Source of the DNA: a virus
DNA length: 64,000 nucleotides
Strand: one strand, 5' to 3'
IMG/VR virus record: IMGVR_UViG_3300042259_000159
The notes below the pieces were generated by a model. The model was not told where the DNA came from. It did no database searches and saw only the letters and a program-made list of their open reading frames with translations. Shown one piece after another: positions 10,432 through 46,401 of this stretch. Position 1 is the stretch's first letter. The number at the start of each line of letters is the position of its first letter. A program made the translations under genes and the position numbers.

Positions 10432-10449
10432 GATTAATTTAAAAACCGC

Positions 10450-10478
10450 TTGACAAAATCAGGCGGTTTTTCTATTGT
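10450..10478 (+). promoter_or_regulatory. sigma70-like promoter (TTGACA-N17-TATTGT) embedded in a hairpin
   Basis: aaccgcTTGACAaaatcaggcggttttt; near-identical element at 16911-16947. Confidence 0.5.
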
Positions 10479-12103: not shown

Positions 12104-12128
12104 CCGGAAATAATCCGGCCTTTTTTAC
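12104..12128 (+). terminator. rho-independent terminator
   Basis: GGCCGG-aaataa-TCCGGCC hairpin followed by T6. Confidence 0.6.
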
Positions 12129-12290
12129 GTCTAAATCCAGAGGACTTTTTCATTTTAAAAGGTCTAGAGAGGTTTTTCATTTTGGGAGGTCTAAAGAACA
12201 TTTTCAATTTACAACCAAAAGTAAAAAGTCTAGAGAACATTTTTAATTTGAGGTCTAAAGAGGATTTTCATTTTCAGATTTTTGTATGAA
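12121..12290 (+). repeat. tandem ~27-bp imperfect repeats (GGTCTA[A/G]AGA...TTTTCATTT); first ~90 bp identical to 16694-16782
   Basis: Direct reading; five units here, three in the second copy. Confidence 0.8.
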
Positions 12291-12400
12291 AATGATACTC
12301 ATTATCACCGATAATGGTCGTTGAAAACGACATTCATTATCAACGATATTGATAATCATTTTCAATGATATTGAGTTTCATTATCAATCTAAATAGTAAC
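12290..12400 (+). repeat. cluster of CATTATCAA(C/T)G / TGATAA repeats
   Basis: cattatcaccgataatgg, cattatcaacgatattgataatcatt, cattatcaatc. Confidence 0.7.
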
Positions 12401-12659
12401 TATTACTAATAATAAAAATTGTGCAGGGGCGGTTTATAATGGATCTTAACCATGTGCCGGAATGCCTTTGATTTTTTCCTCGCTGGCAAAGACAGAATAT
12501 TAAAAATGCAAACGGCGGTCAAGCGGAAAATGAAAAAATATTAAAAATATTTTTTCGGCTTGCCATATCATTATATAGACGCTATATCCATCCCATACCA
12601 CAGACAATGAATGGAACGCGGAGGAATGGAGTTTTTATTAAAAATCGTCTGAAAAACAC

Positions 12660-16673: not shown

Positions 16674-16700
16674 GGCGTTGACAAGGTTGACGCCTTTTTT
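16674..16700 (+). terminator. hairpin plus T6, probable terminator
   Basis: ggcgttgacaaggttgacgcc followed by tttttt. Confidence 0.45.
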
Positions 16701-16782
16701 ACGTCTAAATCCAGAGGACTTTTTCATTTTAAAAGGTCTAGAGAGGTTTTTCATTTTGGGAGGTCTAAAGAACATTTTCAAT
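16694..16782 (+). repeat. second copy of the ~90-bp tandem-repeat element
   Basis: Identical to 12121-12209. Confidence 0.8.
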
Positions 16783-16918
16783 CCGATGCAGCCTTTGCCG
16801 CGTATAGCCGTGACCGCATTGGTTTGGATGGAGAACTGGAGGGATTGTATGCGTGTAAGCCTCCGCTAACACACATAAGGCTGCTTACAGTAAAAATAGA
16901 AAAACTATTCAAAACCGC

Positions 16919-16947
16919 TTGACAAAACCGGGCGGTTCTTCTATTGT
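16919..16947 (+). promoter_or_regulatory. sigma70-like promoter (TTGACA-N17-TATTGT) in a hairpin
   Basis: accgcTTGACAaaaccgggcggttcttcTATTGT; paralog of 10450. Confidence 0.5.
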
Positions 16948-17333: not shown

Positions 17334-17574
17334 TCAAAAAACCTCAAAACAACATAAATAACAGGAGCACACTATAACTGACCGCACATTCTTTATCCAC
17401 CTTATATCCGGCCACGTTGCTACGCTCGAAGAGTGGAGGGCAGACTATAAGTCAATGGATGCAGAACTATGGCACGGCAAGCCCGCTGAAGAGTGCAACC
17501 CTGATGAATGGCTTAAAGACGGCCTCCTTGAGGAATATGAAGCGGATCCCAACGAATAAAGCAGTTACACCACA

Positions 17575-17600
17575 GAGGCACCTATGAGGTGCCTCTTCTT
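17575..17600 (+). terminator. rho-independent terminator
   Basis: Perfect 8-bp stem gaggcacc/ggtgcctc, loop tatga, then ttctt. Confidence 0.55.
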
Positions 17601-17949
17601 ATGCCTACTAGCGCCGTTATCAGGGTAACGGCAGGAATCAGCGGGAAACATGTATATAAGGAAAGAAAAACTAAAAGATAACCTAGGACATACGTAAGAG
17701 GTAAAAAGCATTAGAAGGCGCATAAGGGGCACTAAATATGCCCCTTATTTGTTTGTGTGTCTAATAGGCTTTGTGTGTGCAAAAAGGCTTGTATAGCGGC
17801 TTTATCATGGAAGCCGCGCATACAGGCAAGGCTTTTAGCACTATATATGCACAGATACGGTGTATCCGTGAATATGGTTAATAATCTCTAAATACCTGCC
17901 CGAAAGATATGAAATATCTTGAGGGGGGAAACACACAATAATCCTCCTG

Positions 17950-18240
17950 TCAAGTGTTACTGATTTTGAATATCATTATCAATGGAGATATTGTCATTGA
18001 ACAGCATAACGCTGTTATACACACGGATCAATTAATTCCCATCGATCAGCATTTCGCTGGTGCTGCTGGAATCAACACTTGTTGAGATAATGACATCCAT
18101 TATCAATGCTGTTCAATGGCCGTTTTCAACGGCAATGTTTCACGTGAAACATTCCTGATCAGAATACTGGCAAGAAACATTGATAACGACAATCTTTATC
18201 AACGTATCTGGCGATCCTTTCAGGTTAACACAAATCTGGA
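17950..18240. repeat. TTATCAA(T/C)G repeat cluster with dyad symmetry (cattgaacagcat / atgctgttcaatg)
   Basis: Direct reading; non-coding. Confidence 0.7.
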
Positions 18241-18279
18241 AGAAAGTAAAGTAATATAAATTTTAATAAGGGGTTGACA

Positions 18280-18960
18280 TCTTCCTGATATTTTGATATT
18301 ATAGAAAGAGAGGCGTATGGGGAGGGGGGAGGCCTTAAGCACCGGTATACTTATATACCAAGTACCCCTATAGGTTCATGCCGGATATTTGCCCAAGTAC
18401 CCCTATAATGGTATACCGATATACTTATACACACCATATCTGCACACAGAAGGTATAGGGGGATATTTCCTGCTAGGATATTTCCACACAAAAAGGGGGA
18501 GTATATGGGAGGGATATTCCTGAAGGGAATAGATATTTTAGACAGGTATATATATATTATCTCTATGCTATATATACTCTATATATGTATATTCCATATA
18601 TACATATTTCTTCTTATTCTATTCTTCTATTTCTACTAATGAGATATATACATATTAGGACAGCATATGCATGTGTCTACATCACATGTAGACACATATA
18701 TACACATTCCCTTTCCTAACGGACAGCCGTATTATAACATATTTTTTGGATTTTGTCAAGAACTTTTTTGTATTTCACATGGAAAATATTTCATACCGGC
18801 TATTCCTTTTGGGAATAGCCTATTCCATTTTGGAATAACCATTCCTAGGGGAATAGCCTGTTCCCAGAGGGAACAGACATACCCGAAGGGAATAGATATG
18901 CCCATTGGAAATAGCAAAAGCCCACACACCTGTAAAGATATGTGGGCTGATAACATTAAC
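18280..18960. repeat. iteron-like array (TTCC-N5-GGAATAG units) plus TA-rich low-complexity repeats
   Basis: At least 6 units such as ttccttttgggaatagcc, ttccattttggaataacc, ttcctaggggaatagcc; aagtacccctata twice. Confidence 0.7.
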
Positions 18961-19018
18961 AGTGTTAATAACATTAGCGAAGCTAATAATATTTTATCCT
19001 ATCAATCAATACCTGTAG

Positions 19019-19249
19019 CTACGTGATCGAGGCAGAGCACCTGTGGTCGAGGTAGAACACCTTGCCAATGCAGAAGGTATGCCCTTCCTTCATAATGCGG
19101 AATGTTGCTTGCATGGGCACATTTACCTCCACTACCCACTGGATGCCTTGTTCAGGCCAGAAACTCAAGCTGCCGTTAAACTCAAAAGGCTTTGCTTCAC
19201 AACCCTTCACAGCGGTATTTATCTCTTCCATACCATCTTCACCAGTCAT
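19019..19249 (-). CDS. hypothetical protein
   Basis: ATGA overlap with the methyltransferase stop. Confidence 0.4.
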   Translation of the reverse strand: MTGEDGMEEINTAVKGCEAKPFEFNGSLSFWPEQGIQWVVEVNVPMQATFRIMKEGHTFCIGKVFYLDHRCSASIT

Positions 19250-20100
19250 GACTCCACGGAATCAAGCAAACTTGGCTGCTTATTTCTACGGCTAATAGCC
19301 TCGGCGTCTAGCCGCTTAGCGATTATCTCGCAGTACTTTTCTTCGCGCTCTATCAGGATCCAGCGGCGGCTAGCACGCTCGGCTGCAACTGCTGTTGTGC
19401 CGCTGCCCGCGCAGAAATCAAGCACTGTTTCACCTTCGTTGGTGTAGGTTTTGATGAGGTATTCCATTAGGGCAACAGGTTTTTGGGTTGGATGGAGTGC
19501 TTCAGAGTCTTGGCTAAATTTAATAACACCGCGAGGGTAGTTTGTAAATTCTTGTTTATAGCTTTCAGATTTGGTCAGATCATTATGTACACTTGTCCTA
19601 TCCCCATTCTCTTTTAGAGAATCCTTCCGTGTCTTTGTCCCCGTGTTTTTTACCACCTTGTCCACCTTTACAAGCCCCTGCGCGTTATAAGTTGGCTGCT
19701 TGCGGTAGAATACAAGCACGTCCTCAAATCCTTTTAGCGGCATCCTTTTGGCATTGGGGAAATTTGTTGGACGACCTTTCTCCCAGACCCATGTGTATTT
19801 AAGCATTTTGAGATTACTAGCCCCCAAAAGACTTGTAAACGGCTGGCTAGCAGTCATAACAACAGCCCCACTAGGCTTGATAGCCCGCTTCAACTGCTCC
19901 CACATTGGCTCTAGCGGAATAATGCTATCCCACTTACACGCCGTCATTCCAATTCAGCCGTAGGGTGGATCGCATAACACCAGGTCTATAGAGCCGTCTG
20001 GGATATATTTCATAACCTCAAGACAATCTCCATGAACCAACGTGTTAGGCAATACGCACCCTACGTGCTGTATCTCCTTTTCGTTAGTTATAGTAAACAT
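19246..20100 (-). pseudogene. DNA methyltransferase (N6A/N4C type) interrupted by a single in-frame TGA after the DPPY motif
   Basis: Minus-strand reading ...LVLCDPPYG-TGA-IGMTACKWD...; C-terminal FCAGSGTTAVAAE motif I; start overlaps the HNH stop (TAATG). Confidence 0.65.
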
Positions 20101-20642
20101 TAAATAAAATACTCCTGTATGTTTAGTTTCAAATTATTCCAATCTGTTTGTGTCATATCATTTTTGCACCTATTTTCAAACCACGACAAAAACTGCAAGT
20201 TTTCTATGTCATTAGTTCCTCCTTTTGCTTTTGGTGTTATGTGGTCTATTGATGGCTTTTTGTATTTTTCTTTACCGCCGCTAACCCATCTTTCATAAAT
20301 CCTATTAAATTGATCGTCATAGTAAAACCTACTTATATAACTTTTGTACCATTCAGTTGATATGTCCCATCTGCCTGAACGATTCGTAATTACATCATTT
20401 AACAGCTTTAATTTATCAAAATCCTTAAACTGCATTAACCAATCAGTCGTTACGTCAAACCTCAAGTGTGTTGCCATGTTGTTATAATTGCGCTCAATAT
20501 CACAATTAAATTTTTTAACACCTCTTAGATTCTTGGGCTTTCTGGTCTGTACCCCATTTCTCTTCAGGATTCTTGATATTAGTTTGTGATTAGTACCTAG
20601 CTTATCCGCTATAGAGCGCATTGAATCGCCACTTTTGTACAA
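20100..20642 (-). CDS. HNH homing endonuclease with N-terminal HTH
   Basis: SIDHITPKAKGGTNDIENLQFLSWFENRCKND. Confidence 0.7.
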   Translation of the reverse strand: MYKSGDSMRSIADKLGTNHKLISRILKRNGVQTRKPKNLRGVKKFNCDIERNYNNMATHLRFDVTTDWLMQFKDFDKLKLLNDVITNRSGRWDISTEWYKSYISRFYYDDQFNRIYERWVSGGKEKYKKPSIDHITPKAKGGTNDIENLQFLSWFENRCKNDMTQTDWNNLKLNIQEYFI

Positions 20643-20647
20643 TTCAA

Positions 20648-21049
20648 CTAATGGATAAATAGGTAATCCCCAATCTCCTCGGGGCGTTTAGCATTTTTTA
20701 CCTGCTCATTATAAGGAAGAACCAAGAGTTCACCAACAGCATCCCTTTTGGATACAGGCAGTTTTTCTTCCAGCCGTTTTTGCATAGACTCGGAGTCCAT
20801 TCCCATCAACAGCTCAAAAATCTCCAAATCTTTTAGACGATTATCGGTGGCAGGTAGAAGCGATCCAAGTATACAGGCTTTATTGAGTATCAGGGGTTTG
20901 CGCCCTTTCCAGTAACTGCCAAGAGCGGTCAATGTTTTGCTCTGAACAGCGCTCTGTTCTTTAAAACTTTCAGCGGATATTTTTTGCACTGGAAAGAGAT
21001 GTTCAATCAGTGCCGGTTTATCTTTCCATTCGAACGGTTTCAGTGCCAT
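20648..21049 (-). CDS. hypothetical protein
   Basis: Start MALKPFEW overlaps the upstream stop (TGATG). Confidence 0.4.
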   Translation of the reverse strand: MALKPFEWKDKPALIEHLFPVQKISAESFKEQSAVQSKTLTALGSYWKGRKPLILNKACILGSLLPATDNRLKDLEIFELLMGMDSESMQKRLEEKLPVSKRDAVGELLVLPYNEQVKNAKRPEEIGDYLFIH

Positions 21050-21279
21050 CAGATATCTCCCTTTTCTATAAATCCAACAAGAGGAAGGACTTCTTGTTTT
21101 GCTTGTATATTGTACATCTGGCAAAGATCAGTAAGATTGTCAGAAGATGTAACCCACTTACCAACCTGATTTTTGACATCGAAAAAGGTAACACCCTTAT
21201 TGTGATTGCATGGTAAGAGGTTTTCAAAAAGATTATGGCACCCCCTTAAGGAGGGCTTTTGTATCATAACACCTTCCAC
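21049..21279 (-). CDS. hypothetical protein
   Basis: ORF track. Confidence 0.35.
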   Translation of the reverse strand: MEGVMIQKPSLRGCHNLFENLLPCNHNKGVTFFDVKNQVGKWVTSSDNLTDLCQMYNIQAKQEVLPLVGFIEKGDI

Positions 21280-27679: not shown

Positions 27680-30600
27680 CTAAATGCTTTTATCTACAAA
27701 CTTTCTCTGTGGAAAATCAAATTCCCGCCTTGTTTTATTCCAAGCTTTTACGGGTGTAAAAAACCCAACAACCCTTGTCAGCTGTGTACTTATATCTTCC
27801 GAACATATGGGGCATGTACTGAAGGAACCCATAGAGACATGGGAGTTGATACACTCAGAGTATACGGTATTAATGGCAAAATGTTCACATCCACAACCCA
27901 AAGCAAAACAGATAATTTTCTTGGCCTGCTCTCTTGTCAGCCTCTGCCCGACAGTGGCATGAACAATCCCCCCGCCTGTTAGGTTTTTAGTATATTCTCC
28001 GTCAATTCTGAGCCTGTCCCACAGAGATGCCTCTTCCCACAAAGGAACAAACTGGTTTGCATAGAGAGGGTATTCTATAAAAGTATCGCCGTGAATGATC
28101 TTATCTGCGCTGCAAACTTTTACAGCCATACTCTCTGCTGGGATTTGCTCAATGTTGAAGACATATCCTGCGTTCTTCTTGGTATACAATCTAGCTTTTC
28201 TGTTAAGAAATGTCAAGATCTTTTTCTTCAAATCCCCCTCAACACCGAACCTTTGTTTAAGAACCTTTTCACACTCGTAAAGACCAAGAATACCAAACGT
28301 TGAAAAGAGCCTGTTGAGGTCTATCCACCCACGCGTTATAAAAGGCTGAAGACCTATTTGTTCAAGGACATGAATCAAGACCTTATGAGCAATCAGAATA
28401 TCTTTAGCAGCCTCTACACGGTACGTGTATATTTTCCAAAAATCATCAATACTCTCGGCCTCAATTGCCATCTTGTTGAAATTAAGAGTAACAACTCTAT
28501 GGCTCCCGATGCTGGAAAGAACACCGGCACCGAAAGAATTGGAGGTGGATGCCACATCTAACATCTCTTCATCATTGATCAATCGGCAACAGCTAGCGAT
28601 CTTTGTGCTCTCAGATGTGAAAATATTGTAGCGCGAAATGTCTCTATTAAGAAATATTTCCAAACTCTCTTCGTCTGCAAGGATGTAATCATCGCCGTCC
28701 TTAGTTTTTGAAATGTTCATCGTGCAAACAGGGAACCTGTAAGGCATCCCGTTATTTGAGGGATCTCCTTTATCAAAGATGTCTAGGAATATTTCCTGCA
28801 ATTCAAAAACATAGTCAACACACTCTTCTATATCTACAACACCACCATCTGAAAACATCCACAAAAGATGTTCCTTTATGATGTACCTGAGTTTGTGTTT
28901 ATCAAACACCGATACATTGGTAAAGGGACTCTCAACTCCGTCACGACTCAAATGGTTTACGCTGTGAATAAGCTGTTGAAACTCGTTTTCTATCTCTTTC
29001 CTCACAGCCTTATCGTTTTTAAGCACATCAAGGGGAACCTTATTCTTTATCATGAGAAGGTGAGCAACATCTATAAATACAGTACCTATGGCTAGAGCAC
29101 CAGCAACATGCGATGACATTTGGTGGATTGTCTCACACAGGGCGGCAATATAACTATTAACTCTTTTTGCCGGTTTAGAGGGCAATACTCCAAAAGTTCT
29201 TCCTTCTGTAATGAGATTTGTTGCGTTTAAAGAATAACAATTATGTTGCACCATTCCGTTTGCATAAAAACGGCCCGTTGCTGTTGTCAAATCATATACG
29301 TCTTGAAGCTCCTCTCTAAGCTTTCTTGTACTAGGAATGTCTTCAAGATTAAACCTGATGATTTTTACAACCCTGTTGCTTTCGCCCTTGGTGTTTGCTT
29401 TTTCATTATACTTATCATAGTCTTCTTTATGCATCTTCATCTTATCAGAAAGATCAACCATCTTATTCGTACTTGACGGGACAAAGGAAAGGGCATAAAT
29501 CGAATTAGAAATATCACTCCCTTTTATCCTTTTTCTAAGGCATCGAATACCTTCAATGCCTCTAAGGACGTCATAAAGTGTGTTTATTACTGCCATAGAC
29601 TGCAAACAAATCTCCACCCTGCCATTCTTTTTGTAGGTATATCCGTCCGCGTCTACAAGCCCCGCAACAAGTGCCTCTACAGAATCATTTGTCCAAGAGA
29701 GGATGTTCTTAGGAAGAACCTTTGTGAAGCTATTTTCTTTGTTCCCGAAACCAAAAAAGGCACTTACAAGAAAATTCATATCATAAGAAGACCAATTAAT
29801 CTGTCTCTCGACTTTATCACTGGGCTTAAAAAGATTCGCATCAGGAAACAAGTCTTTTATGATACTATAAATTCTTGAGTTATCAATATCGTTTTGATAA
29901 ACACTGCAAAGCGTTCCCCCTCTTGTAAATCTGAAAGAGCCTTTTATGTCCTTACCGTTCATTACGCCATCATCAACACAATACCCTTCAAAGTTCCCAT
30001 CACCAAGCATAAAGCCAAGAAGGTAGGCCAGCTTTTCTGGAACAATTATTGTTTTTTCCACGGAGGGCAAACAAGTCTCTGTCAAAACAGCATCCCCAAC
30101 AGAAAGTTCTGAGGCTATTTTTTCAGTTCCATCTTCCATATAGATTGGGTGGTTGTCTGTTACCAAAGCAAAGTGCCCTGCCTCTGTCTGATACAAAGAG
30201 AATCCTGTATCCGTTTTATGCTTGATAATACGTTGTACAGCAACCCATCCATTGTTTGTATCCCAAACCTCTATATTAACTTTTTCACTCACATTGCAGG
30301 CCAACTTACCGGAACGACCTTTTGCGGTGTTCTTGTTAGTGATGTTCGCACTCACATTATTACGCAGCATTGCTGTTGTAATCTCTAGATCTCTTGTAAG
30401 GCCTTTTGTGTTAATTTCCTCATGCGTACCCCTATTTTCGGAGTGTATTGCAAACATATTGAAAAGCTTTTTAAGAGGAATACAAATAATCTCTCCGTTA
30501 ATTCTGACAAAAACAGGCGTGTTTCCATAATACGAATATGGAAGGTTTAGCTTCGTGCTGTCGGAGATGGGAAGACTGAAATCCAACATTTCTCCTATAA

Positions 30601-30982
30601 GCCTTTTAGCCCTCTTCTTGCCGTAGAGTTCCTTCATAACACGGTAGAGGAAATCGTACCCTGCAATTTTTTTCTGGGGGGCACTTGCCTCACTCTGTAT
30701 TCCGGCAATTGTCTTCTCATTCTTATTAGCATTGTCATCAATAGAGACATCATTAATGTTTGCATTTAATTGTTTTTGAAACATCTTGAGAAAGTCTGTA
30801 TTGTCCTGCGAAAGACCATGCAGACGCATAAGTTTTTCAGCTTTTGTATCAATCTCTTCTTGAGAAAGGGTTGTTTTACGAGAAAGATTCCTTTTCAAAG
30901 CCTTAAGCATCTGTTTCCGTGTGTATTCAATCTCAGCATCATTTGTAAAAGATGAAGAAAAACCTTTAGCTATGCTATTCAA
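27680..30982 (-). CDS. nrdD: anaerobic ribonucleoside-triphosphate reductase NrdD (class III), interrupted by an intein
   Basis: C-terminal glycyl-radical-like TRVVGFF and CPICS zinc site; long ORF; likely TTG start at 30982 (AAGGAG 9 nt upstream) overlapping the nrdG stop; track ORF extends to 31051. Confidence 0.8.
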   Translation of the reverse strand: MNSIAKGFSSSFTNDAEIEYTRKQMLKALKRNLSRKTTLSQEEIDTKAEKLMRLHGLSQDNTDFLKMFQKQLNANINDVSIDDNANKNEKTIAGIQSEASAPQKKIAGYDFLYRVMKELYGKKRAKRLIGEMLDFSLPISDSTKLNLPYSYYGNTPVFVRINGEIICIPLKKLFNMFAIHSENRGTHEEINTKGLTRDLEITTAMLRNNVSANITNKNTAKGRSGKLACNVSEKVNIEVWDTNNGWVAVQRIIKHKTDTGFSLYQTEAGHFALVTDNHPIYMEDGTEKIASELSVGDAVLTETCLPSVEKTIIVPEKLAYLLGFMLGDGNFEGYCVDDGVMNGKDIKGSFRFTRGGTLCSVYQNDIDNSRIYSIIKDLFPDANLFKPSDKVERQINWSSYDMNFLVSAFFGFGNKENSFTKVLPKNILSWTNDSVEALVAGLVDADGYTYKKNGRVEICLQSMAVINTLYDVLRGIEGIRCLRKRIKGSDISNSIYALSFVPSSTNKMVDLSDKMKMHKEDYDKYNEKANTKGESNRVVKIIRFNLEDIPSTRKLREELQDVYDLTTATGRFYANGMVQHNCYSLNATNLITEGRTFGVLPSKPAKRVNSYIAALCETIHQMSSHVAGALAIGTVFIDVAHLLMIKNKVPLDVLKNDKAVRKEIENEFQQLIHSVNHLSRDGVESPFTNVSVFDKHKLRYIIKEHLLWMFSDGGVVDIEECVDYVFELQEIFLDIFDKGDPSNNGMPYRFPVCTMNISKTKDGDDYILADEESLEIFLNRDISRYNIFTSESTKIASCCRLINDEEMLDVASTSNSFGAGVLSSIGSHRVVTLNFNKMAIEAESIDDFWKIYTYRVEAAKDILIAHKVLIHVLEQIGLQPFITRGWIDLNRLFSTFGILGLYECEKVLKQRFGVEGDLKKKILTFLNRKARLYTKKNAGYVFNIEQIPAESMAVKVCSADKIIHGDTFIEYPLYANQFVPLWEEASLWDRLRIDGEYTKNLTGGGIVHATVGQRLTREQAKKIICFALGCGCEHFAINTVYSECINSHVSMGSFSTCPICSEDISTQLTRVVGFFTPVKAWNKTRREFDFPQRKFVDKSI
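29240..30298 (-). other. intein with LAGLIDADG homing endonuclease domain inside NrdD
   Basis: Hint block B VTDNHPIY; LAGLIDADG motifs LAYLLGFMLGDGNF and LVAGLVDADGY; C-terminal VQHN followed by Cys; N-terminal boundary uncertain (may extend to ~30535). Confidence 0.7.
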
Positions 30983-31490
30983 AGCAGTAAACTCCTTCTT
31001 TTGTAAGTTTAACATAATTATTATTATAAAGTTCTTGGTTAGACGAACCAAGTACGAGTTTTGTCCTTTGCCCTTTTGTTGTATCTGACTGGTGCAGTTC
31101 TTTTATATACTCTCCTGTTTTTATAAATTTGAAACCGTTAAGATTAAGGTATTTAACAGTGTCAATATCGTATCCAGTATAAATACATATGTTAAAACAC
31201 CCACCGTATTGTTCTAAGAACTGTGCTGTAAACCCTCTGTTGCAGGAGGCTAGCGGATCTCCACCAAGAAGTACAATATTATTTGTGCGGTATTTTAAGG
31301 TCTCCTGTTTACAATGGTTGTAGAAGTCTTCAATGGAAAATTCCACACCACCCTGATATTCAGGGTTTTGCAGGGAGGGGTTATGACACCCCTTACAGGA
31401 AAAATCACACCCACACATAAAAAGACTTACTGCCCACCCATCCTTTGAGGGGTAGTCTGTAAATGTCATCTCAGAACCTGCAAATCTCAT
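30975..31490 (-). CDS. nrdG: anaerobic RNR activating enzyme NrdG (radical SAM)
   Basis: CGCDFSCKGC radical SAM-type cysteine motif; adjacent to nrdD. Confidence 0.75.
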   Translation of the reverse strand: MRFAGSEMTFTDYPSKDGWAVSLFMCGCDFSCKGCHNPSLQNPEYQGGVEFSIEDFYNHCKQETLKYRTNNIVLLGGDPLASCNRGFTAQFLEQYGGCFNICIYTGYDIDTVKYLNLNGFKFIKTGEYIKELHQSDTTKGQRTKLVLGSSNQELYNNNYVKLTKEGVYCFE

Positions 31491-33953: not shown

Positions 33954-34037
33954 TGGTAGGAGAAGAGAGATTCGAACTCTCAAGGAATAATCCGTCGAGG
34001 CTTAAACTCGATGTGTTTACCATTTCACCATTCTCCC
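33954..34037 (-). tRNA. tRNA-Leu (anticodon UAA), type II, CCA encoded
   Basis: Manual fold: acceptor GGGAGAA/TTCTCCT, anticodon loop TTTAAGC, long variable arm, T-loop TTCGAAT. Confidence 0.65.
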
Positions 34038-34045
34038 GTATTTTT

Positions 34046-34067
34046 TATCTACCATTCCGCCATTCCC
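34046..34067 (-). other. orphan tRNA 5' fragment (Leu-like acceptor + D-arm)
   Basis: GCGGGAATGGCGGAATGGTAGA with no matching 3' half. Confidence 0.4.
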
Positions 34068-34076
34068 GCATTTATT

Positions 34077-34153
34077 TGGTACCCACTGTGAGATTCGAAC
34101 CCACACTAATCAGTTTCTAAGACTGATGCCTCTGCCAAGTTGGGCTATACCAG
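34077..34153 (-). tRNA. tRNA-like gene (class I, anticodon UAG) with mismatched acceptor stem; probably chimeric or disrupted
   Basis: D-arm, anticodon arm TCAGT-CTTAGAA-ACTGA and T-arm fold, but 5' ACTGGTA does not pair with 3' AGTGGGT. Confidence 0.4.
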
Positions 34154-35399: not shown

Positions 35400-35620
35400 G
35401 GGTTGGTTGGTGCAGATTGTGAACGTACCCCCGCCTATAGAGGCGGAAGCTTCCTGCTTCAGCGAGAACAGCACCAGTAACTCCGAAGAGTTGTGGCGAA
35501 TTACACTCTCTCCACAGGCGTAAATTCCCGTGCGACCCACGGTACTTTATGAGTTACGCTAGGCAGATATTCGCCCAGCTTCTTCTCTAATATTTATTGC
35601 AGCGTTCTTGTCACGGTTAT
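35400..35620 (-). ncRNA. putative TnpB guide (omega) RNA region overlapping the tnpB 3' end and right end
   Basis: Position relative to tnpB; subterminal hairpin CCGCC-tataga-GGCGG at 35431-35446; no direct RNA evidence. Confidence 0.35.
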
Positions 35621-36795
35621 GATGACTGCCACACTTAAGGCAATCCCATTCCCGCACAGACAAGTCTTTGGTATCCTTGTTCTGGTAGCCACAGACATGG
35701 CATAGCTGACTGCTTGGATACCATTTGTCTATCTTGATAAGTTGCTTACCCTGCCATGCAAGTTTGTATTTCAGCATACTTGTGAACATGCTCCAGCCGT
35801 TGTCGGATATGGATTTACCAAAGTTGAACTTGCCACCCTTCTTTCGCTTCGCCATGTCCTTTACGCTAATGTCCTCTATGCCAATCACATCATAGCGGTC
35901 TGCAAGATAACGAGCTTTCTTATGCAGGAAGTCGCGGCGTTGATTAGCAATTTTCTCATGGAGTACAGCCAAACGTAGTCTTTGTTTATTCCTATTACGG
36001 CTCCCTTTTTGTCTCTTGGAGAGTTTTCTTTGTGCCTTGATCAATCTCTTTTCGGCTTCCCGTAAGAAATTTGGATAATCGGCGTTGTCCTCATCGGAAG
36101 CAACATACATCCCGTGCATAGCAAAATCCAATCCAAGAAAATTCTTCGGTATGATGGGAAGTATTTGGTTTTCATACTCCACCAAAATACTAATATAGTA
36201 TTTTCCTGACGGTGTTTTACTTATGGTTACAGTCTTTATGGTGCTATTCTCCATCAATGGACGATGCAGACACAGCTTTACCCAACCTATTTTCGGCAGC
36301 TTGACTTTGTTTCCCTCGATTCTTACAGAGCCATGTTGGTTGTTCGTAGAATATGAAGCATGACCCGCTTTCTTCGACTTGAAGCGTGGCTTGCAAAAAT
36401 GCTTCCTATTGCTCCAAAAGTTGTTATACGCCTTGTTCAGGTTTATTTGGGCATTGGCGAGAGCAAGGCTGTCAACCTCTTTCAGCCAAGGAAACTCTTT
36501 CTTGTACTGTGCAGGTGTGTTGTTCAGCCTCTCTCCTGTTTCCTTATAGTGATCAAGACGATCTCCAAGCATCTTGTTATAGATGAATCTGGCACTGCCG
36601 AAAGTCTTGGCAAACATAATCTTCTGTTCAATTGTCGGGTAGAGTCTATATCGGTATGCCTTATTCACTATAATCACCTGCCTTGATTTTCTATGTATTT
36701 ACGAATTGTCTCAAACGGAGCAATTATCTGGCTCAACTACTTACGTAAATTCGCTAGACACACCTTCATCCCCCACCTTAGAGGTGGAGGGCTTC
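35425..36795 (-). mobile_element. IS200/IS605-family element, TnpB-only (IS1341-like)
   Basis: tnpB ORF flanked by similar subterminal hairpins at 36773-36787 and 35431-35446; no tnpA seen. Confidence 0.7.
35559..36677 (-). CDS. tnpB: TnpB (IS200/IS605 OrfB, RuvC-like RNA-guided nuclease)
   Basis: N-terminal YRYRLYPT; C-terminal zinc finger CHVCG...CLKCG; 372 aa. Confidence 0.85.
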   Translation of the reverse strand: MIIVNKAYRYRLYPTIEQKIMFAKTFGSARFIYNKMLGDRLDHYKETGERLNNTPAQYKKEFPWLKEVDSLALANAQINLNKAYNNFWSNRKHFCKPRFKSKKAGHASYSTNNQHGSVRIEGNKVKLPKIGWVKLCLHRPLMENSTIKTVTISKTPSGKYYISILVEYENQILPIIPKNFLGLDFAMHGMYVASDEDNADYPNFLREAEKRLIKAQRKLSKRQKGSRNRNKQRLRLAVLHEKIANQRRDFLHKKARYLADRYDVIGIEDISVKDMAKRKKGGKFNFGKSISDNGWSMFTSMLKYKLAWQGKQLIKIDKWYPSSQLCHVCGYQNKDTKDLSVREWDCLKCGSHHNRDKNAAINIREEAGRISA

Positions 36796-36799
36796 TGGC

Positions 36800-36843
36800 G
36801 GGTTAGGTTAAATCCCTTGTGTCTACTAATTCCACCAATCGGG
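36800..36843 (-). other. partial tRNA-Leu-like 5' fragment next to the IS left end
   Basis: GCCCGATTGGTGGAATTAGTAGACAC duplicates the 5' end of tRNA-Leu at 36940 but lacks a foldable remainder. Confidence 0.4.
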
Positions 36844-36853
36844 CTAAAATCTT

Positions 36854-36940
36854 TGGTGCCCAATGCAGGACTCGAACCTGCACGCCATTTCAGGCAGGAG
36901 GGCTTAAACCTCGTGTGTCTACCAATTCCACCAATCGGGC
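36854..36940 (-). tRNA. tRNA-Leu (anticodon UAA), type II, CCA encoded
   Basis: Manual fold: acceptor GCCCGAT/ATTGGGC, anticodon loop TTTAAGC, long variable arm. Confidence 0.6.
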
Positions 36941-36949
36941 TAAAATCTT

Positions 36950-37033
36950 TGGTGCCTCAGACAGGATTCGAACCTGCACGGATCTCTCCACTTGGTCCTA
37001 AGCCAAGCGTGTCTGCCATTCCACCACTGAGGC
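36950..37033 (-). tRNA. tRNA-Leu (anticodon UAG), type II, CCA encoded
   Basis: Manual fold: acceptor GCCTCAG/CTGAGGC perfect, anticodon stem CTTGG/CCAAG, loop CTTAGGA. Confidence 0.65.
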
Positions 37034-40254: not shown

Positions 40255-40329
40255 ACTTACCTCCTGTTTTTGTTTTAGTTGTAAGGTGCTTTTACCTGTC
40301 AATATCAAACTACCCCTATTCCCCCTGTT

Positions 40330-40470
40330 TGTCAATACCTTATTCTTATCTAAACATAAGATATATATATTATATATATATTCTTTATATAATATAAATA
40401 TATATACTTTATATATAGTATATTTATATAATATATATATGTATATAATATATATACTCCTACTCACTAC
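40330..40470. repeat. TA-rich low-complexity repeat upstream of dam
   Basis: atatatattatatatatattctttatataatataaatatatatac... Confidence 0.8.
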
Positions 40471-40603
40471 GAGACACATACATAATATATACATTAACCC
40501 TTCCTGCAAAGGAAGCCGTAGGATACCATAAAAAAGAGATTTTGTCAAGCATTATTTTAAGAAATGTTAAAAATAATTTCCTAACCTAATCTCTATTTTT
40601 TAC

Positions 40604-40632
40604 TTGACAAAAAGACTTTATTGTGTTATAAC
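40604..40632 (+). promoter_or_regulatory. sigma70-like promoter (TTGACA-N17-TATAAC)
   Basis: tacTTGACAaaaagactttattgtgtTATAAC. Confidence 0.45.
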
Positions 40633-40652
40633 ATAATAGAGGCTAATTTTAT

Positions 40653-40847
40653 ATGGAGGAAAATATGATATACACATACAGGTGTTCAATCTGCAACAAG
40701 CTTTTTACCTCGCACGAGGATGTATACGATGTATACTTAGAAAGCTTTGTTTGTCCTGAATGTCTGCGTGAGGGAAATATCTCCGCTGTCTATGGCGAGG
40801 ATTTCTTAGATTCGCTGGACATGTTCGACAACCCAGAAGATCTTTAA
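40653..40847 (+). CDS. small zinc-ribbon protein
   Basis: CSIC...CPEC; GGAGGA RBS. Confidence 0.45.
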   Translation: MEENMIYTYRCSICNKLFTSHEDVYDVYLESFVCPECLREGNISAVYGEDFLDSLDMFDNPEDL

Positions 40848-40882
40848 TAAAGTATTTTATCAAAAAATAATTAAATAAAGAC

Positions 40883-40910
40883 TTGACAAATGGTTAAAAG
40901 TGTGTTATAA
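40883..40910 (+). promoter_or_regulatory. sigma70-like promoter (TTGACA-N16-TATAAT), candidate late/packaging promoter
   Basis: acTTGACAaatggttaaaagtgtgtTATAAT. Confidence 0.5.
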
Positions 40911-41050
40911 TAGGTTTTGAATTAATAATTAAAAATGATAATGAATTTCATTGTCTTTTGTAATCTTCTAAGATGTCTTAGATAGGCATCCGAAAAGTAT
41001 AGGGGAGTTTCCCTCCTTTTCTCCCCTATAAAATATTAACAGGAGGTAAT

Positions 41051-41922: not shown

Positions 41923-42199
41923 GGTGCCGCAGGTTCGGGAAAGTCATACATAATGAATATGATACCTTTGAGGTATGTCGATTGCCCCAACTTTAGGGGG
42001 ATTGTCTTCCGAAGGGAAACGACACAGCTTACAGGTGAAGGGGGGATGTGGGATACAGCAACGGAGATATACTCTGAGCTGCCTAAAAATATCAGGCCCA
42101 AAATATTGAAACATAACCTGAGAATGATTTTTCCGAATGGGGCAAAAATTAAGTTTTCACACATGGAAAATGATAATGATTTCAGGAAACATCAAGGGT
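41923..42199 (+). CDS. terL: terminase large subunit, exon 2 (Walker A)
   Basis: GAAGSGKSY ... FSHMENDNDFRKHQG. Confidence 0.65.
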
Positions 42200-42453
42200 T
42201 AATTAGTAGCCCCTTGTGTTGGTGACAGCGCAAGCAAACTAACCTAATTCGGTGGAAGCCCAAACATGTAGGATGTGGGTGATACCGAGCAAGCCACGGC
42301 GTGTGTAACGACTAGTTCTTAGGAACGTAGGCCCAAGCGGGTCGAAACGGTTAGCATCTTATTAAGATGAAGATATAGTCTACTCTGCATGGAAACATGC
42401 AGCGGACACTTTATGTGTCGGGCAGATGTTAGCGCCATCTGTTGAATATTATG
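42200..42453 (+). other. group I intron 2 in terL
   Basis: R gtgtgtaacgactagttcttagg at 42301; S gaagatatagtctactctgcatggaaacatgcag at 42369. Confidence 0.6.
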
Positions 42454-42562
42454 TACAATATACCCTGATATGCTTTGATGAGGCAACACATTTCACTTTC
42501 CAACAAGTTGAATACTTAATGTCACGTATGAGAAGTAAAAGTAAGTATGCTTCTCGTATGGT
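42454..42562 (+). CDS. terL: terminase large subunit, exon 3 (Walker B)
   Basis: QYTLICFDEATHFTFQQVEYLMSRMRSKSKYASRM. Confidence 0.6.
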
Positions 42563-42846
42563 TCTGTCGTGGATTACGCGACATGTATGGCGAAAGCTGT
42601 ACTGGCAACTGTGTGAACTCAGGGAAACCTTAGCTGCTGCAATTGGGCAGAGGAAGAAGGCAATCCTGAGCGAAGCCTTCCCACCGGGAAGGAACGTGCA
42701 ACGACCATCGAAAGCGTAACACCTGTTACAGTGAGTAGAGTACACCACACATGTGTGGTGGAAGCGCACAGCCCCTAACATGTAACGATGAGGGTGAAGA
42801 TATGGTCTGAACCTACAGAAATGTAGAAAAAGGTAAACAAATACAG
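42563..42846 (+). other. group I intron 3 in terL
   Basis: Shared 48-bp motif caatcctgagcgaagccttcccaccgggaaggaacgtgcaacgaccatc; S-like gaagatatggtctgaacc at 42796. Confidence 0.55.
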
Positions 42847-43162
42847 GATAATCGGTAACCCAGATCCTGATAGTTGGCTTTTGCCTATGGTAGAGTGGTA
42901 CTTAGATGAACAAGGATACCCCGACCAGTCTAAAGATGGGGTTGTAAGATGGTTCATTAGAAAGAATGGTGAGTTTATCTGGAGGGATACAGAAGAAGAA
43001 ATCTATAGAGATTTTGGAACAGGCCCGTCTATACGCCCTGTATCCTTTACATTCATCTCTGCAAATATCTATGATAACCCTATTATGATAGAGACCAATC
43101 CAGACTATCTTGCAATGCTTGAAGGCCTCAACGAGGTTGATAAGGCAAGATTACTACGCGGT
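42847..43162 (+). CDS. terL: terminase large subunit, exon 4
   Basis: IIGNPDPDSWLLPMVEWYLDEQGYPD...; the NP motif is only in frame once intron 3 is removed. Confidence 0.6.
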
Positions 43163-43444
43163 TAACAGTGGCCGCATATAGTAGTGATATTATATGAAAA
43201 ATTGTGTGAATTCAGGGGACACCTAAACAGGCAACGCTTTGTGCTGTAGGCAATCCTGAGCGAAGCCTTCCCACCGGGAAGGAACGTGCAACGACCATCC
43301 TGAGTAGGAGTAGGGCCAAGCGGTTCCGAAGCGCACAACATCTCATTGAGATGATGATATGGTCTGATCTATATGGAAACATATAGCTGACACGGTGTAT
43401 ATTACGTGTCGGGCACGTCTTAGCGAGACGTGCTGAACAAAATG
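43163..43444 (+). other. group I intron 4 in terL
   Basis: Same 48-bp motif at 43250; S-like gatgatatggtctgatctatatggaaacatatag at 43371; 3' end ...ctgaacaaaatg. Confidence 0.55.
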
Positions 43445-44167
43445 AACTGGTATGCTAGACCACAGGATAGTGGATACTTTAAAAGAGATTGGCTGCAACG
43501 TTGTGTTGAGGCACCTACTGATACAAAGTGGGTACGTGCTTGGGATAAAGCAGCTACAGAGCCGAGTGACACAAACCCCTCTCCTGACTATACAGCTTGT
43601 ATAAAGATGGGGAAAGATAGAGCAGGAAACTACTACATTGCTGGCGATTTTGTGGAAGAAAACTATGATGAAGACAGCAAGACATATGGCAGGTTCAGGA
43701 AAAGAGCAGGTGCAAGAGATAATATCATCTTGAAACAGGCACTTGCTGATGGCCATGATTGTGAGGTTGTTCTTCCTCAAGACCCCGCTGCTGCGGGTAA
43801 GACGGAATACATTGAATCAGCAAAGAAATTAATAGAGCAAGGTATCCGTTGCAGAAAGGATGTGGTTGCATCTAACAAATCTAAGCTAATAAAGTTTTCA
43901 CCGTTTTCTGCATCATGCGAGAATGGGCTTGTTTACATCTTGGATGCAACATTTACCCAAAAAACATTGAATGCATTTTATACAGAGCTTGAATCTTTCA
44001 ACGGAGAAGCAAGCACAAGAACACGAAAGGATGATTGGGTTGACTGCACAGCAATGGCATTCAACTACCTATCTAAAAAAAGTGTACTTCCCAATTTTAC
44101 ACTAGATGAGTGGGGAGGTACATCGGTAAAAACACCCCTCTCAATTGTGAGGGCCAACTTTCATTAA
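43445..44167 (+). CDS. terL: terminase large subunit, exon 5 (nuclease domain)
   Basis: WVRAWDKAAT...DYTACIKMGKDRAGNYYIAGDFV; the five exons total 1500 nt (500 codons). Confidence 0.65.
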   Translation, partial: NWYARPQDSGYFKRDWLQRCVEAPTDTKWVRAWDKAATEPSDTNPSPDYTACIKMGKDRAGNYYIAGDFVEENYDEDSKTYGRFRKRAGARDNIILKQALADGHDCEVVLPQDPAAAGKTEYIESAKKLIEQGIRCRKDVVASNKSKLIKFSPFSASCENGLVYILDATFTQKTLNAFYTELESFNGEASTRTRKDDWVDCTAMAFNYLSKKSVLPNFTLDEWGGTSVKTPLSIVRANFH

Positions 44168-44178
44168 GGAGGGCACTG

Positions 44179-44885
44179 GTGGTAAAAGAGGGCAGCAAGT
44201 CTGCTACAAAAACAACCACTTCTAAGAAATTCAACCTATCTGAAAAAGGGTATATAGGACTTAATCAGGTAAATGGCCGCATTTATGAGGAAAGTCGTGA
44301 TGCTTTAAGGTTCCCTAATGCGACAAAGACCTTTAAAAAGATGTCCTATGACCCTGTAATATCCGCTGCAAATTCCACAATAGATCTTATGATAGGTCGT
44401 GTGCAGTGGTTCTTCGATGTTCCTGATACAGCCAGTGATAAGGCAAAAGAAGCAGCAGAATTTTTAAATTACTGTATGAACAGCATGGATATGGGAACAT
44501 GGGAAGATTTCATTACTGAGTGTGGTAGCTATAGACGTTACGGCTTTCACATAGCGGAAAAAGTCTACAACAAGGTTAAAGAAGGGAAGTGGAAGGGAAA
44601 GTATAAGTGGAAAAAACTACCAACAAGAGCACAAGACACCATTGAAGAGTGGGTCTTTAGTAAGGATAACAGGGAGCTTTTAGGCTTAAAACAGTCAACA
44701 AGAAATGTGACACACCCACTGGCATTAAAGAGCCTTACAGGCTATATAGAAATACCAAGGTCAAAATTCATACATTTTGCCTACGATGGGTATAGAGATA
44801 ACCCAGAGGGAAGAAGCCCGTTAGTTGGTGCCTACATCCCTTGGACATATAAAACACTCATAGAGGAATATGAGGCTGTCGGCGT
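44179..44885 (+). CDS. portal protein, exon 1
   Basis: GTG start 6 nt after AAGGAGG; portal-sized product after splicing. Confidence 0.55.
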
Positions 44886-45826
44886 TAATTATAGCGCCTT
44901 TATGTATTGATACATAAAGCAAACTCCCTTAATTCAGGGGAAGCCCTAACGTTGAGACGAGGGTAATCCTGAGCGAAGCCTTCCCAACGGGAAGGAACGT
45001 GCAACGACTAATAAGTCAAATAAACAACACATTAGTGTATGGAGAGTATTTTATGAAAACTTCAAAAGAAATTAGGAACCTTGTCATTGCTATGCTGTTT
45101 GGAGACGGCACATTGAATGCTAAAGGTTATTTGAGCATGCGTCACTGCATAGCGCAAAAAGACTATATAGATTGGAAACGAAAACTTCTAGTAAGTGGTA
45201 TATCTATGACTGACTGTTATTATGTTAGTAATAACGGGTATGGTGCATATGAAGTTAGAAGTAGAGTTTACAAATTTATGAAGCAATATCGTAAGGTAAT
45301 TTATGGTAGTGGTAGAAAAAACATTACAGACCGTAGAATCCTGAATAAGCTCACGCCGCTTGGTTTATCCATATGGTATATGGATGATGGCGGGTTATCT
45401 CAGAAGAAAAACAAGGATGGTGAAGTAGTAGCAAACGAGCTGATACTTAACACATATCTTAGTAGAGAAGACAACCAGAAGATTATTGATTACTTCAATG
45501 AAGTTTGGGGTATAAGATTTACTCAGGTAAAGAATAGAGGTCTTTATCGTCTCCGTTGCGGTACAGCGGAGGCTAGGAAATTTATAGAAATCGTAAAGCC
45601 ATATGTCTCCCAAGTACCGAGTATGGCACACAAAATGAAGTTAAAAGTAAAATAGTCTGACTATCGAACACACGTAATTTTTACGGAAGTTAGTAGAGTA
45701 GAACCAAGTGGTTCGAAACGGGGAGGTTCTTAGAAATAAGAACATGATATAGTCTGGTCTGCATGGAGACATGCAGGAGTTCATAAGAGAACCGGAGAAG
45801 ATTAACGACCTTTTCTGAACACAACG
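44886..45826 (+). other. group I intron in portal gene carrying a LAGLIDADG homing endonuclease ORF
   Basis: 48-bp shared motif at 44960; S element gatatagtctggtctgcatggagacatgcagg at 45746; 3' end ...ctgaacacaacg. Confidence 0.6.
44999..45655 (+). CDS. LAGLIDADG homing endonuclease (intron-encoded)
   Basis: LVIAMLFGDGTL and LSIWYMDDGG motifs; probable start at ATG 45053. Confidence 0.7.
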   Translation: MQRLISQINNTLVYGEYFMKTSKEIRNLVIAMLFGDGTLNAKGYLSMRHCIAQKDYIDWKRKLLVSGISMTDCYYVSNNGYGAYEVRSRVYKFMKQYRKVIYGSGRKNITDRRILNKLTPLGLSIWYMDDGGLSQKKNKDGEVVANELILNTYLSREDNQKIIDYFNEVWGIRFTQVKNRGLYRLRCGTAEARKFIEIVKPYVSQVPSMAHKMKLKVK

Positions 45827-46070
45827 AGCTAAAGACCTTGGGGGTATTCCTCTTATAGGTGTGGATGTTGATTACCTTGCTAAAGCACAGGAGAACCCTG
45901 CATCAGCAGAAGCCGCTGTTGTAGAGGCACTGAAGCGTGATGCAGCAAATATGCATTCAGGTGATCAATCCTACATGCTCCTTCCTCTTGCTTACACACA
46001 GGATGGGGGGAAACCACTCTTTGATTTTAAACTTGTTGGAGTGGACGGTGGTTTGCAAATAAGCCACGGT
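45827..46070 (+). CDS. portal protein, exon 2
   Basis: In-frame continuation (V)AKDLGGIPLIGVDVDYLAKAQ...ISHG. Confidence 0.5.
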
Positions 46071-46401
46071 AGATGGAAACATCTATAAAAATAAACCTAT
46101 CTAATTGCTGGGAAGTCTTGTTAGGCTTAATGTACAATACAGAGTGGTGACACTCTGCGATACTGTAAAAATCATTAAGATAGAGATAATCAGCAGCCAA
46201 GCTTAAGCCTCCAGACAGATAAAGGAGGAGGCTTTTGAAGGTTCAACGACTAGTTCTTAGGAACGTAGGCCCAAGCGGGTCCAAACGGTAGGGTTCCTCC
46301 AGTGCGGCTGAGGAATAAGATATAGTCTAGTCTGTATGGAGACATACAGGTGCAGGTAAAGCTGCCGGAAAGGTCTAGCGAGCCTTTTTGAATACTAAAC
46401 G
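46071..46401 (+). other. group I intron 2 in portal gene (no ORF)
   Basis: R ggttcaacgactagttcttaggaacg at 46241; S gaataagatatagtctagtctgtatggagacatacagg at 46313. Confidence 0.6.

Follow-up and report, generated by a model that had tools for sequence, protein, structure and literature searches.

The 64,000-nucleotide stretch of viral DNA analyzed here (the window; IMG/VR record IMGVR_UViG_3300042259_000159) contains a gene-free stretch of 1.46 kb, at positions 17561-19018, that we refer to as the hub. Genes run on the plus strand up to 17560 and on the minus strand from 19019, and the hub therefore sits where transcription converges. Within it lie a perfect consensus parS site, Fur-box-like palindromes, two strong promoters that aim into a TA-rich tract, and a tandem array of palindromes. 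We tentatively favor, at somewhat below even confidence, a reading in which the hub would be a cis-acting docking site for host and phage DNA-binding proteins, with a parS loaded by host ParB, Fur-type operators, and possibly a transcription-activated origin of replication. Every binding event and every function in this reading is proposed from features of the DNA: the elements and their statistical excess, paralogy within the genome, partial conservation in a relative, and the lack of par or rep genes detectable by Pfam. An initial annotation had described 17340-19020 as a candidate replication origin or partition site on account of its repeats, and every repeat class that it named is confirmed to occur far above chance.

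The partition side of this reading rests on an element missing from the initial annotation: at 18136-18151 lies a chromosomal parS (TGTTTCACGTGAAACA) that matches the consensus perfectly. The 16-bp palindrome by which chromosomal-type parS is recognized, TGTTNCACGTGAAACA, is present in full, agrees with the published consensus (10.1101/724823; PMC10197239), and lies inside a 20-bp perfect palindrome, AATGTTTCACGTGAAACATT, at 18134-18153. Across the whole ~70-kb genome it is the only match to the consensus at up to two mismatches, and by our own calculation a 20-bp palindrome matching parS is expected by chance about 1.5e-5 times per 64 kb. The site also resembles the chromosomal parS sites at which ParB (Spo0J), a CTP-dependent system, and SMC are loaded, in that it has the identical 16-bp consensus, is intergenic, and is set among dense other sites. 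Its final two bases are overlapped by a degenerate TATTCC-N5-GGAATA unit, CATTCCTGATCAGAATA (18150-18166), of the kind found in the palindrome array described below. A centromere-like reading of the region is supported at the level of sequence. A hidden or decayed gene at this position was considered and rejected, since six-frame translations of ~17955-18255 gave no Pfam match even at E<=10.

The parS site lies between the second and third of three Fur-box-like palindromes, at 17962-17980, 18086-18104, and 18182-18200, each of which matches 16 of the 19 positions of GATAATGATAATCATTATC, the published classical form of the Fur-box consensus; the extended form of the first holds CATTATCAATG. These palindromes account for the repeated CATTATCAA(T/C)G boxes of the initial annotation, which are indeed in excess (12 in the window at up to one mismatch vs 2.6 expected, with four at 17974-18204 and four at 12300-12389). 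That annotation had proposed comparing the boxes with DnaA and ParB sites; they are neither, and instead form the outer parts of 19-bp palindromes that fit the Fur-box consensus. At up to three mismatches there are seven such palindromes in the window vs 0.02 expected, at 12288, 12345, 12367, 17962, 18086, 18182, and 40937, so that three of the seven are in the hub, and the remaining 6.19 kb of the genome has none. All seven are judged intergenic from the list of open reading frames (ORFs). The perfect 13-nt inverted repeat that had also been reported, CATTGAACAGCAT / ATGCTGTTCAATG, is present at 17995-18007 and 18106-18118, with each arm adjoining a Fur-like box. Like known Fur boxes (GATAATGATAATCATTATC, or in 7-1-7 form TGATAATnATTATCA), these sites are palindromic and clustered, with 16-17 of 19 matches at all seven; unlike them, most overlap no gene's promoter, control no iron-related gene, and share an extended consensus of the phage's own, cattGATAATGAnAnTCATTATCaatg, that is longer than the standard. 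No Fur gene was found in the phage by Pfam. The arrangement is also reminiscent of the KorB-KorA system of RK2, in which a ParB-family loading site is tightly flanked by operator-type palindromes able to stop or capture sliding clamps, but this is an analogy only, as there is no KorA- or KorB-like gene here.

The right half of the hub is organized around a TA-rich tract of low duplex stability at 18537-18720, a candidate DNA unwinding element that holds five copies of ATATATAC. The initial annotation had pointed out TA-rich tracts; of all 100-mers in the window, only 40356-40455 is less stable than 18549-18648 (z 4.4). Two sigma-70-type promoters, the two best matches in the first 20 kb, aim into this tract. 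The rightward promoter, on the plus strand at 18274-18302, reads TTGACA-17-TATTAT with an extended -10 TG (11/12). The leftward promoter, on the minus strand at 18731-18759, is perfect (TTGACA-17-TGtTATAAT, 12/12), has no ORF downstream, and shares the strict pattern TTGACA-N14-16-TGnTA[TC]AAT with just one other promoter of the genome. Past the rightward promoter is a G-run-rich leader at 18309-18514, with seven runs of at least three G in 230 nt (window mean 1.9, standard deviation 1.4), GGTATA-type palindromes, two copies of GGATATTTCC, and the duplicated CCAAGTACCCCTATA noted earlier, which occurs as two exact copies 35 nt apart. In the leader of the leftward promoter, at 18666-18702, is a palindrome with 17-nt arms, TATGCATGTGTCTACAT-CAC-ATGTAGACACATATATA, whose RNA fold is unusually stable (z -3.6). 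The direct copies of GGATATTTCC at 18466-18490 equal the left half of a 22-bp Noc-binding-site oligonucleotide from the literature (GGATATTTCCCGGGAAATATCC), which may be coincidence. We do not claim a Noc-binding site (TATTTCCC-GGGAAATA), with which the half-sites are alike and the spacing is different.

On the upstream side of the leftward promoter, at a distance of 39 bp, an array of six tandem palindromes of the form (C)TATTCC-N4/5-GGAATA(G) occupies 18798-18915 with spacings of 20, 19, 19, 19, and 19 bp, in agreement with the earlier report of at least six TTCC-N5-GGAATAG units. An additional TATTCC/GGAATA unit with a 4-nt spacer lies at ~18840, and an isolated perfect unit, TATTCCTGAAGGGAATA, marks the left edge of the TA tract at 18515-18531. 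With up to two mismatches, TATTCC-N5-GGAATA occurs nine times in the window vs 3.2 expected, and seven of the nine are at 18150-18913. Similar repeat layouts are known from plasmid centromeres (R1 parC, the 20-bp repeats of pSK41 parC, and the omega sites of pSM19035), with which the six ~19-20-bp units here have in common that they are tandem, lie directly upstream of a strong promoter, and differ in number between relatives. In contrast to those systems, the units here are dyad-symmetric, not direct heptads or 11-mers, and no parMR or parAB operon follows the promoter; a centromere of type Ib or II (parC-like) is thus matched in the adjacency of repeats and promoter and not in the par operon, for which there is no ORF. 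Clusters of ATATTCC/GGAATAT half-sites also occur in unrelated phages (L009, L011, and L012 of IMG/VR 3300045988, and L010 of 3300025649). The idea of a binding protein shared by these arrays was dropped because the proteins neighboring them have no homologue in this phage, and a role of the hairpin array as a CRISPR-repeat decoy or Cas6 sponge was judged unlikely, the units being only 19-20 nt long and without spacers.

The right-hand part of the hub is partly conserved in one relative and duplicated in part within the genome; the comparative evidence is thin. A 1-kb metagenome contig, L090, covers 18670-18950, the right-hand quarter only, and its genes to the right differ from those of the window. 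Its 152-bp core with the promoter and leader is 95% identical, with one substitution between the hairpin and the array. The leader palindrome is longer in L090 through a nested symmetric insertion, and the intrinsic terminator of the minus-strand gene block (18919-18948, minus strand; a 13-bp stem followed by a T run) is retained. The array has 3.5 units there, in which the TATTCC/GGAATA halves are conserved and the central bases differ. A core that is kept, an array that varies in copy number, and half-sites that persist fit a conserved cis-acting module with protein-binding repeats. Five other contigs that cover all or part of the region are 100% identical across it, another relative (L212) is a mosaic without the region, distant homologues of the flanking genes are not syntenic, and one metagenome scan gave no match.

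Within the genome, 40300-40560 is a paralogue of the unit formed by the leftward promoter, its ~60-nt leader, and the TA tract (alignment score 153 vs 72 +/- 9 for shuffles). The paralogue of the promoter itself is at 40520-40550, a 26-base degenerate pattern matches both copies, and ATATATAC recurs in both places. The wider region at 40300-40960 is a divergent switch region with two strong plus-strand promoters (~40604 and ~40883) and the Fur-like box at 40937-40955 just past the second of them. Two relatives, L004 and L091, are 94-97% identical over 40300-40960, and L004 has insertions and deletions in the TA tract.

On the reading that we favor, host ParB would load at parS and mark the phage DNA as a centromere-like locus, to which SMC might be recruited for organization, or by which phage DNA might be positioned or segregated during replication or in a carrier state. 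A Fur-family protein, or one of equivalent specificity, would occupy the flanking boxes as a regulator or a roadblock. Transcription from the orphan promoters would enter the TA tract, and transcripts or R-loops there could melt the duplex and supply primers for a replisome made up of the T7-like primase-helicase and PolA. The hub would in this way provide a second origin, activated by transcription and paralogous to the 40.3-40.6 kb module. Finally, a phage-encoded dimeric protein may gate this origin through the palindrome array. The hub does have what a transcription-primed origin calls for, a promoter into an AT-rich tract with no ORF downstream. It is like the T7 primary origin, T4 oriF and oriG, and ColE1 RNA II in pairing an ORF-less strong promoter with a meltable AT-rich tract, here with a G-run-rich leader on one side, and in belonging to a phage with a T7-type primase-helicase and PolA. 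It is unlike them in that the promoters are of host sigma-70 type and convergent, and in that the paralogue at 40.5 kb also serves as an ordinary operon promoter.

Several observations weigh against this reading. Neither ParA nor ParB has a Pfam match in the window or the rest of the genome, nor is there a GERRxRA motif, and any function of parS would thus rely on host ParB; the partition site proposed in the initial annotation gains from the perfect parS and finds no such backing among the genes. The parS is single, and no conserved relative spans the parS half of the hub that would speak for selection on it in this lineage. Chromosomal parS systems differ from this one on the same counts, as the site here is phage-borne without its own ParA or ParB, and it lies at a point of convergent transcription, a position typical of a chromosome terminus and not of an origin or of parS, rather than near an origin with genes pointing away. 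The Fur-like boxes at 17962-18200 overlap no strong promoter and control no gene; only the 40937 site is just downstream of a promoter, and the boxes could belong to a phage protein of chance-similar specificity. The RNA fold of the first 230 nt past the rightward promoter is not unusual (z -0.36). The paralogue at 40.5 kb is also the plain promoter of the minus-strand gene block, so the copy in the hub could be a duplicated early promoter.

The checks proposed for an origin are likewise unsupportive. Cumulative guanine-cytosine (GC) skew peaks locally at ~18 kb and is lowest at 40.5 kb, and over the whole genome it is highest at ~66 kb. Coding-strand skew, computed for the window plus positions 11653-17842 of contig L013, is +0.155, +0.155, and +0.147 in the three large gene blocks and +0.23 in the small opposite-strand block. 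Because it is positive in every block whatever the orientation, skew tracks transcription only and is of no use for locating an origin here. Perfect DnaA boxes (TTATCCACA) are absent and near matches form no cluster, the hub having three one-mismatch matches against a window-wide rate of 0.55 per kb, and a DnaA-box origin was rejected on these grounds. No initiator of Rep, O-like, or DnaA-like type was found among ~100 ORFs by Pfam or PHROGs, many of which are small and have no assigned function. The architecture does agree with the origin proposed in the initial annotation, namely six tandem dimer-type sites, a meltable TA tract, and strong promoters into it, and an origin at the hub is plausible but unproven.

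Two other regions of the genome are equally or more origin-like than the hub, which gives three concrete origin candidates: the hub, 40.3-40.6 kb, and 12.13-12.42 kb. The region at 40.3-40.6 kb combines the least stable DNA of the window with divergent promoters. At 12128-12420, five or six direct repeats of ~27 bp (GGTCTAAAGA..TTTTCATTTT) lie just past a terminator and are followed by three Fur-like palindromes and an AT-rich stretch, and no other region examined comes as near to a classical iteron origin of the direct-repeat kind. Part of this stretch, with three of the repeats, recurs as an exact 91-bp copy at 16692-16782, where short-read assemblies break. The mapped theta origin of ICP1 is not transferable by synteny because gene order differs.

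An alternative that shares much of this evidence is an iteron theta origin of lambda or plasmid type, which we consider unlikely as the main function of the hub. Here, an initiator dimer would bind the six palindromes and the units at 18515 and 18150, bend the DNA, and melt the TA tract, with flanking transcription activating the origin and parS and the Fur-like boxes being accessory; on balance we would give this view roughly one chance in a handful. The lambda origin consists of four 19-bp dyad iterons. The hub resembles it in its tandem dyad-symmetric sites of ~19-bp period, the adjacent AT-rich tract, and nearby transcription, but is not inside an initiator gene, has a promoter between the array and the TA tract, and belongs to a phage in which no O-like protein was found. 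The six tandem sites at a period of ~19-20 bp adjoin the second least stable tract of the window as an AT-rich unwinding element, another palindrome unit sits on the far side of that tract, strong promoters flank it, and the copy number of the array differs between relatives while its half-sites are retained, all as an iteron origin would have it. Such an origin also calls for an initiator gene, and it counts against it that no Rep, O-like, or DnaA-like protein was found by Pfam or PHROGs and that there is no DnaA-box cluster, as do the promoter/TA paralogue at 40.5 kb, which has no array and yet is less stable still, and the more typical direct-repeat iterons at 12128-12420. The skew is uninformative on this point.

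A different alternative takes the hub as a transcriptional buffer or insulator between two operons, possibly with non-coding RNAs, and gives it no role in replication or segregation, with parS hitchhiking or neutral. We regard this as improbable to about the same degree as the iteron origin. As to the borders of the region, the initial annotation had placed them at 17340-19020, for a non-coding length of 1.7 kb. The last gene of the plus-strand block is in fact a plausible small ORF at 17374-17560 (plus strand, 61 aa, with an AGGAG ribosome-binding site and a non-ATG start) that forms the left border outside the hub, and it is followed at 17575-17595 by a terminator-type hairpin, read from the sequence as GAGGCACCT-ATG-AGGTGCCTC and then TTCTT, that closes the block. 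The gene-free length is thus 1.46 kb, not 1.7 kb; the description as non-coding is upheld for 17561-19018 and not for 17340-17560. The accompanying claim that no credible ORF exists at ~17.6-19.0 kb agrees with the ORF list, which has none in 17561-19018. An ORF of 119 aa over the palindrome array (18667-19026) was judged spurious, as it has no Shine-Dalgarno sequence and no Pfam record and the repeat period is not a multiple of three. A second intrinsic-terminator-like hairpin with a T-rich tail lies on the plus strand at 17722-17748 (terminator scan and fold). The hub corresponds to no gene and to no known RNA family: Rfam gave nothing for the region in a search of the whole window at gathering score and only sub-threshold, chance-level matches in a search of the region at E<=1, there is no tRNA within the region, and blastn gave no match to it among phages or plasmids.

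The insulator interpretation draws on these terminators, which bound the region on both strands, on its position at the convergence point, on the first palindrome unit, which scores as a plus-strand terminator, and on the leader hairpin, an unusually stable RNA that is kept in L090. The leftward promoter would then be a duplicated member of an early-promoter family, making antisense or regulatory RNA, a proposal to which we likewise assign little probability; the -35 context of this family, CTTGACAAAATC, is common to promoters at 10449, 16918, and 40538. What stands against the interpretation is that a perfect parS palindrome is not expected by chance and is at least tenfold enriched in viral contigs, that there is no Rfam family and the rightward transcript is unstructured, and that 1.2 kb far exceeds what an insulator needs. 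At 10441-10471 and 16913-16937, we also observe promoter-in-hairpin copies (AACCGCTTGACAAAA(T/C)C.GGCGGTT then TATTGT) similar to the promoter-early stem-loops that bound cassettes in T4-type phages.

Less probable again is that the sites act as decoys, such that in an amplifying genome the seven Fur boxes and parS would titrate host Fur and ParB without any need for nearby genes. With Fur titrated, iron uptake would be de-repressed, from which iron-dependent phage enzymes would profit, and titration of ParB would disturb chromosome segregation, a pair of effects that we think quite doubtful. The FURTA assay works through such titration of Fur by Fur boxes in multiple copies. By our reading of the ORF list and promoter scans, six of the seven Fur-like boxes lie outside genes and clear of any strong promoter, and the phage encodes NrdD, a 4Fe-4S-cluster protein (Fer4_12), and a PAPS-reductase-like enzyme. 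On the other hand, the proposal is purely inferential, the box past the strong promoter at 40.9 kb looks like ordinary regulation, one parS per genome would be a weak sponge, and the tight clustering of sites about parS suggests an organized complex and not dispersed decoys.

Finally, a packaging (pac or cos) site or physical genome ends at the hub, with the repeats as terminase recognition sites, is very improbable: in the unrelated phage L010 two tandem TATTCCATTTTGGAATAG units do precede a 119-aa gene by 31 bp, and this gene is in turn separated from the terminase large subunit downstream by ~1.2 kb and two other genes, but the neighbor proteins of L010 and L012 have no homologue in this genome, its terminase genes are 22-29 kb away, downstream of the 40.5-kb region, contigs continue straight across the hub, and assemblies of 70.2, 91.6, and 117 kb with the same sequence indicate a circular or permuted map with no fixed ends there.

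The genomic setting is that of a distant ICP1/phiTE-like myovirus of virulent type. At 100% identity, the window matches IMG/VR contig 3300042267_000152, and a 70,213-bp Joint Genome Institute contig joins the window's end to its start via 6,190 bp at 100% identity, which makes the genome map circular or permuted at ~70,190 bp; by arithmetic, the 91.6-kb and 117-kb contigs are then assemblies of more than one genome unit. The minus-strand genes that begin at 19019 extend to ~40250, and plus-strand genes resume from 40650, except that the 6.19-kb segment beyond the window includes a short block on the minus strand. Among sequenced polymerases, the nearest belong to Vibrio phages PWH3a-P1 and ICP1 (38-40% identical in amino acids), and the tail module is phiTE/E217-like. 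By Pfam and gene tables, the replication genes encode a Toprim-DnaB primase-helicase, PolA, a 5'-3' exonuclease, and a ligase. Other encoded proteins include a CCA-adding enzyme, NrdD with an intein, a 4Fe-4S protein (Pfam Fer4_12), ThyX, and a PAPS-reductase-like enzyme, and the genome also has two DNA methyltransferases, eight tRNAs, and one TnpB insertion element. No integrase was found in the genome by Pfam. The TnpB element, of IS200/IS605 type at 35418-36812, is 94-97% identical to copies in Phascolarctobacterium with which its flanks are not in common; this identity points to Phascolarctobacterium, which is the likely host. The element is flanked on each side by a tRNA-Leu(taa)/tRNA-Leu(tag) pair, at 33954-34145 and 36854-37033.

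Five group I introns are found within ~4 kb at 42190-46349 (Rfam scores 51-96 bits), where they interrupt genes that start the structural/terminase module, several of them in the region of the terminase genes, and LAGLIDADG and HNH endonuclease families are present among the window's ORFs. The intein of the anaerobic ribonucleotide reductase NrdD (27680-31051) has a weak, sub-threshold LAGLIDADG-like match. Just to the right of the hub, at 19246-21124, a DNA methyltransferase is apparently split into an N-part with DUF1156 (20648-21049) and a C-part with N6_N4_Mtase (19246-19947, from profile position 32), the two being separated by an HNH endonuclease gene at 20100-20642. The sole difference between the window and a variant, L082, is a set of 84 substitutions at 20690-20981, which suggests a localized recombination or homing tract.

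The parS of the hub is one of many in viral DNA. The exact 16-mer occurs in at least 120 IMG/VR viral contigs (loci L092-L211), vs 12 (loci L214-L225) for a matched-composition palindrome that also has a central CG. This enrichment of at least tenfold over the control suggests a wider phenomenon and that the case described here is not unique. Among the 166 parS sites listed, which are depleted from ORFs, 43% are inside ORFs of at least 100 aa, vs 79% of bases, and the flanks are mostly AA/TT, the same as at the hub. The first 80 parS loci checked include none related to this phage. Less than 4 kb from parS, the ORFs of 32 contigs that are 30 kb or longer include terminase, portal, capsid, polymerase, and SSB genes, and ParB and ParA are absent from the 25 most frequent of the 63 Pfam families found there. 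Our literature searches found no description of a natural host-type parS in virulent phages, or of the combination of elements in the hub.

Each element of the hub is of a known kind, whether parS, Fur-type operator, sigma-70 promoter, unwinding tract, or tandem dyads, and it is their combination that appears to be new, in a virulent-type gut phage without detectable ParA, ParB, Rep, or integrase. It is conceivable, though we think it somewhat less likely than the docking function proposed for the hub itself, that orphan host-consensus parS sites are a widespread and unrecognized route by which phages hijack host ParB, and thereby SMC, onto viral DNA. If so, the benefit to the phage may lie in organization, positioning, inheritance in a carrier state, or titration of host factors. 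If host ParB does load on the phage DNA, a virus would be engaging the chromosome-handling machinery of its host in a new way, which would bear on the organization of phage DNA, on carrier states, and possibly on the evasion of SMC-type defenses.

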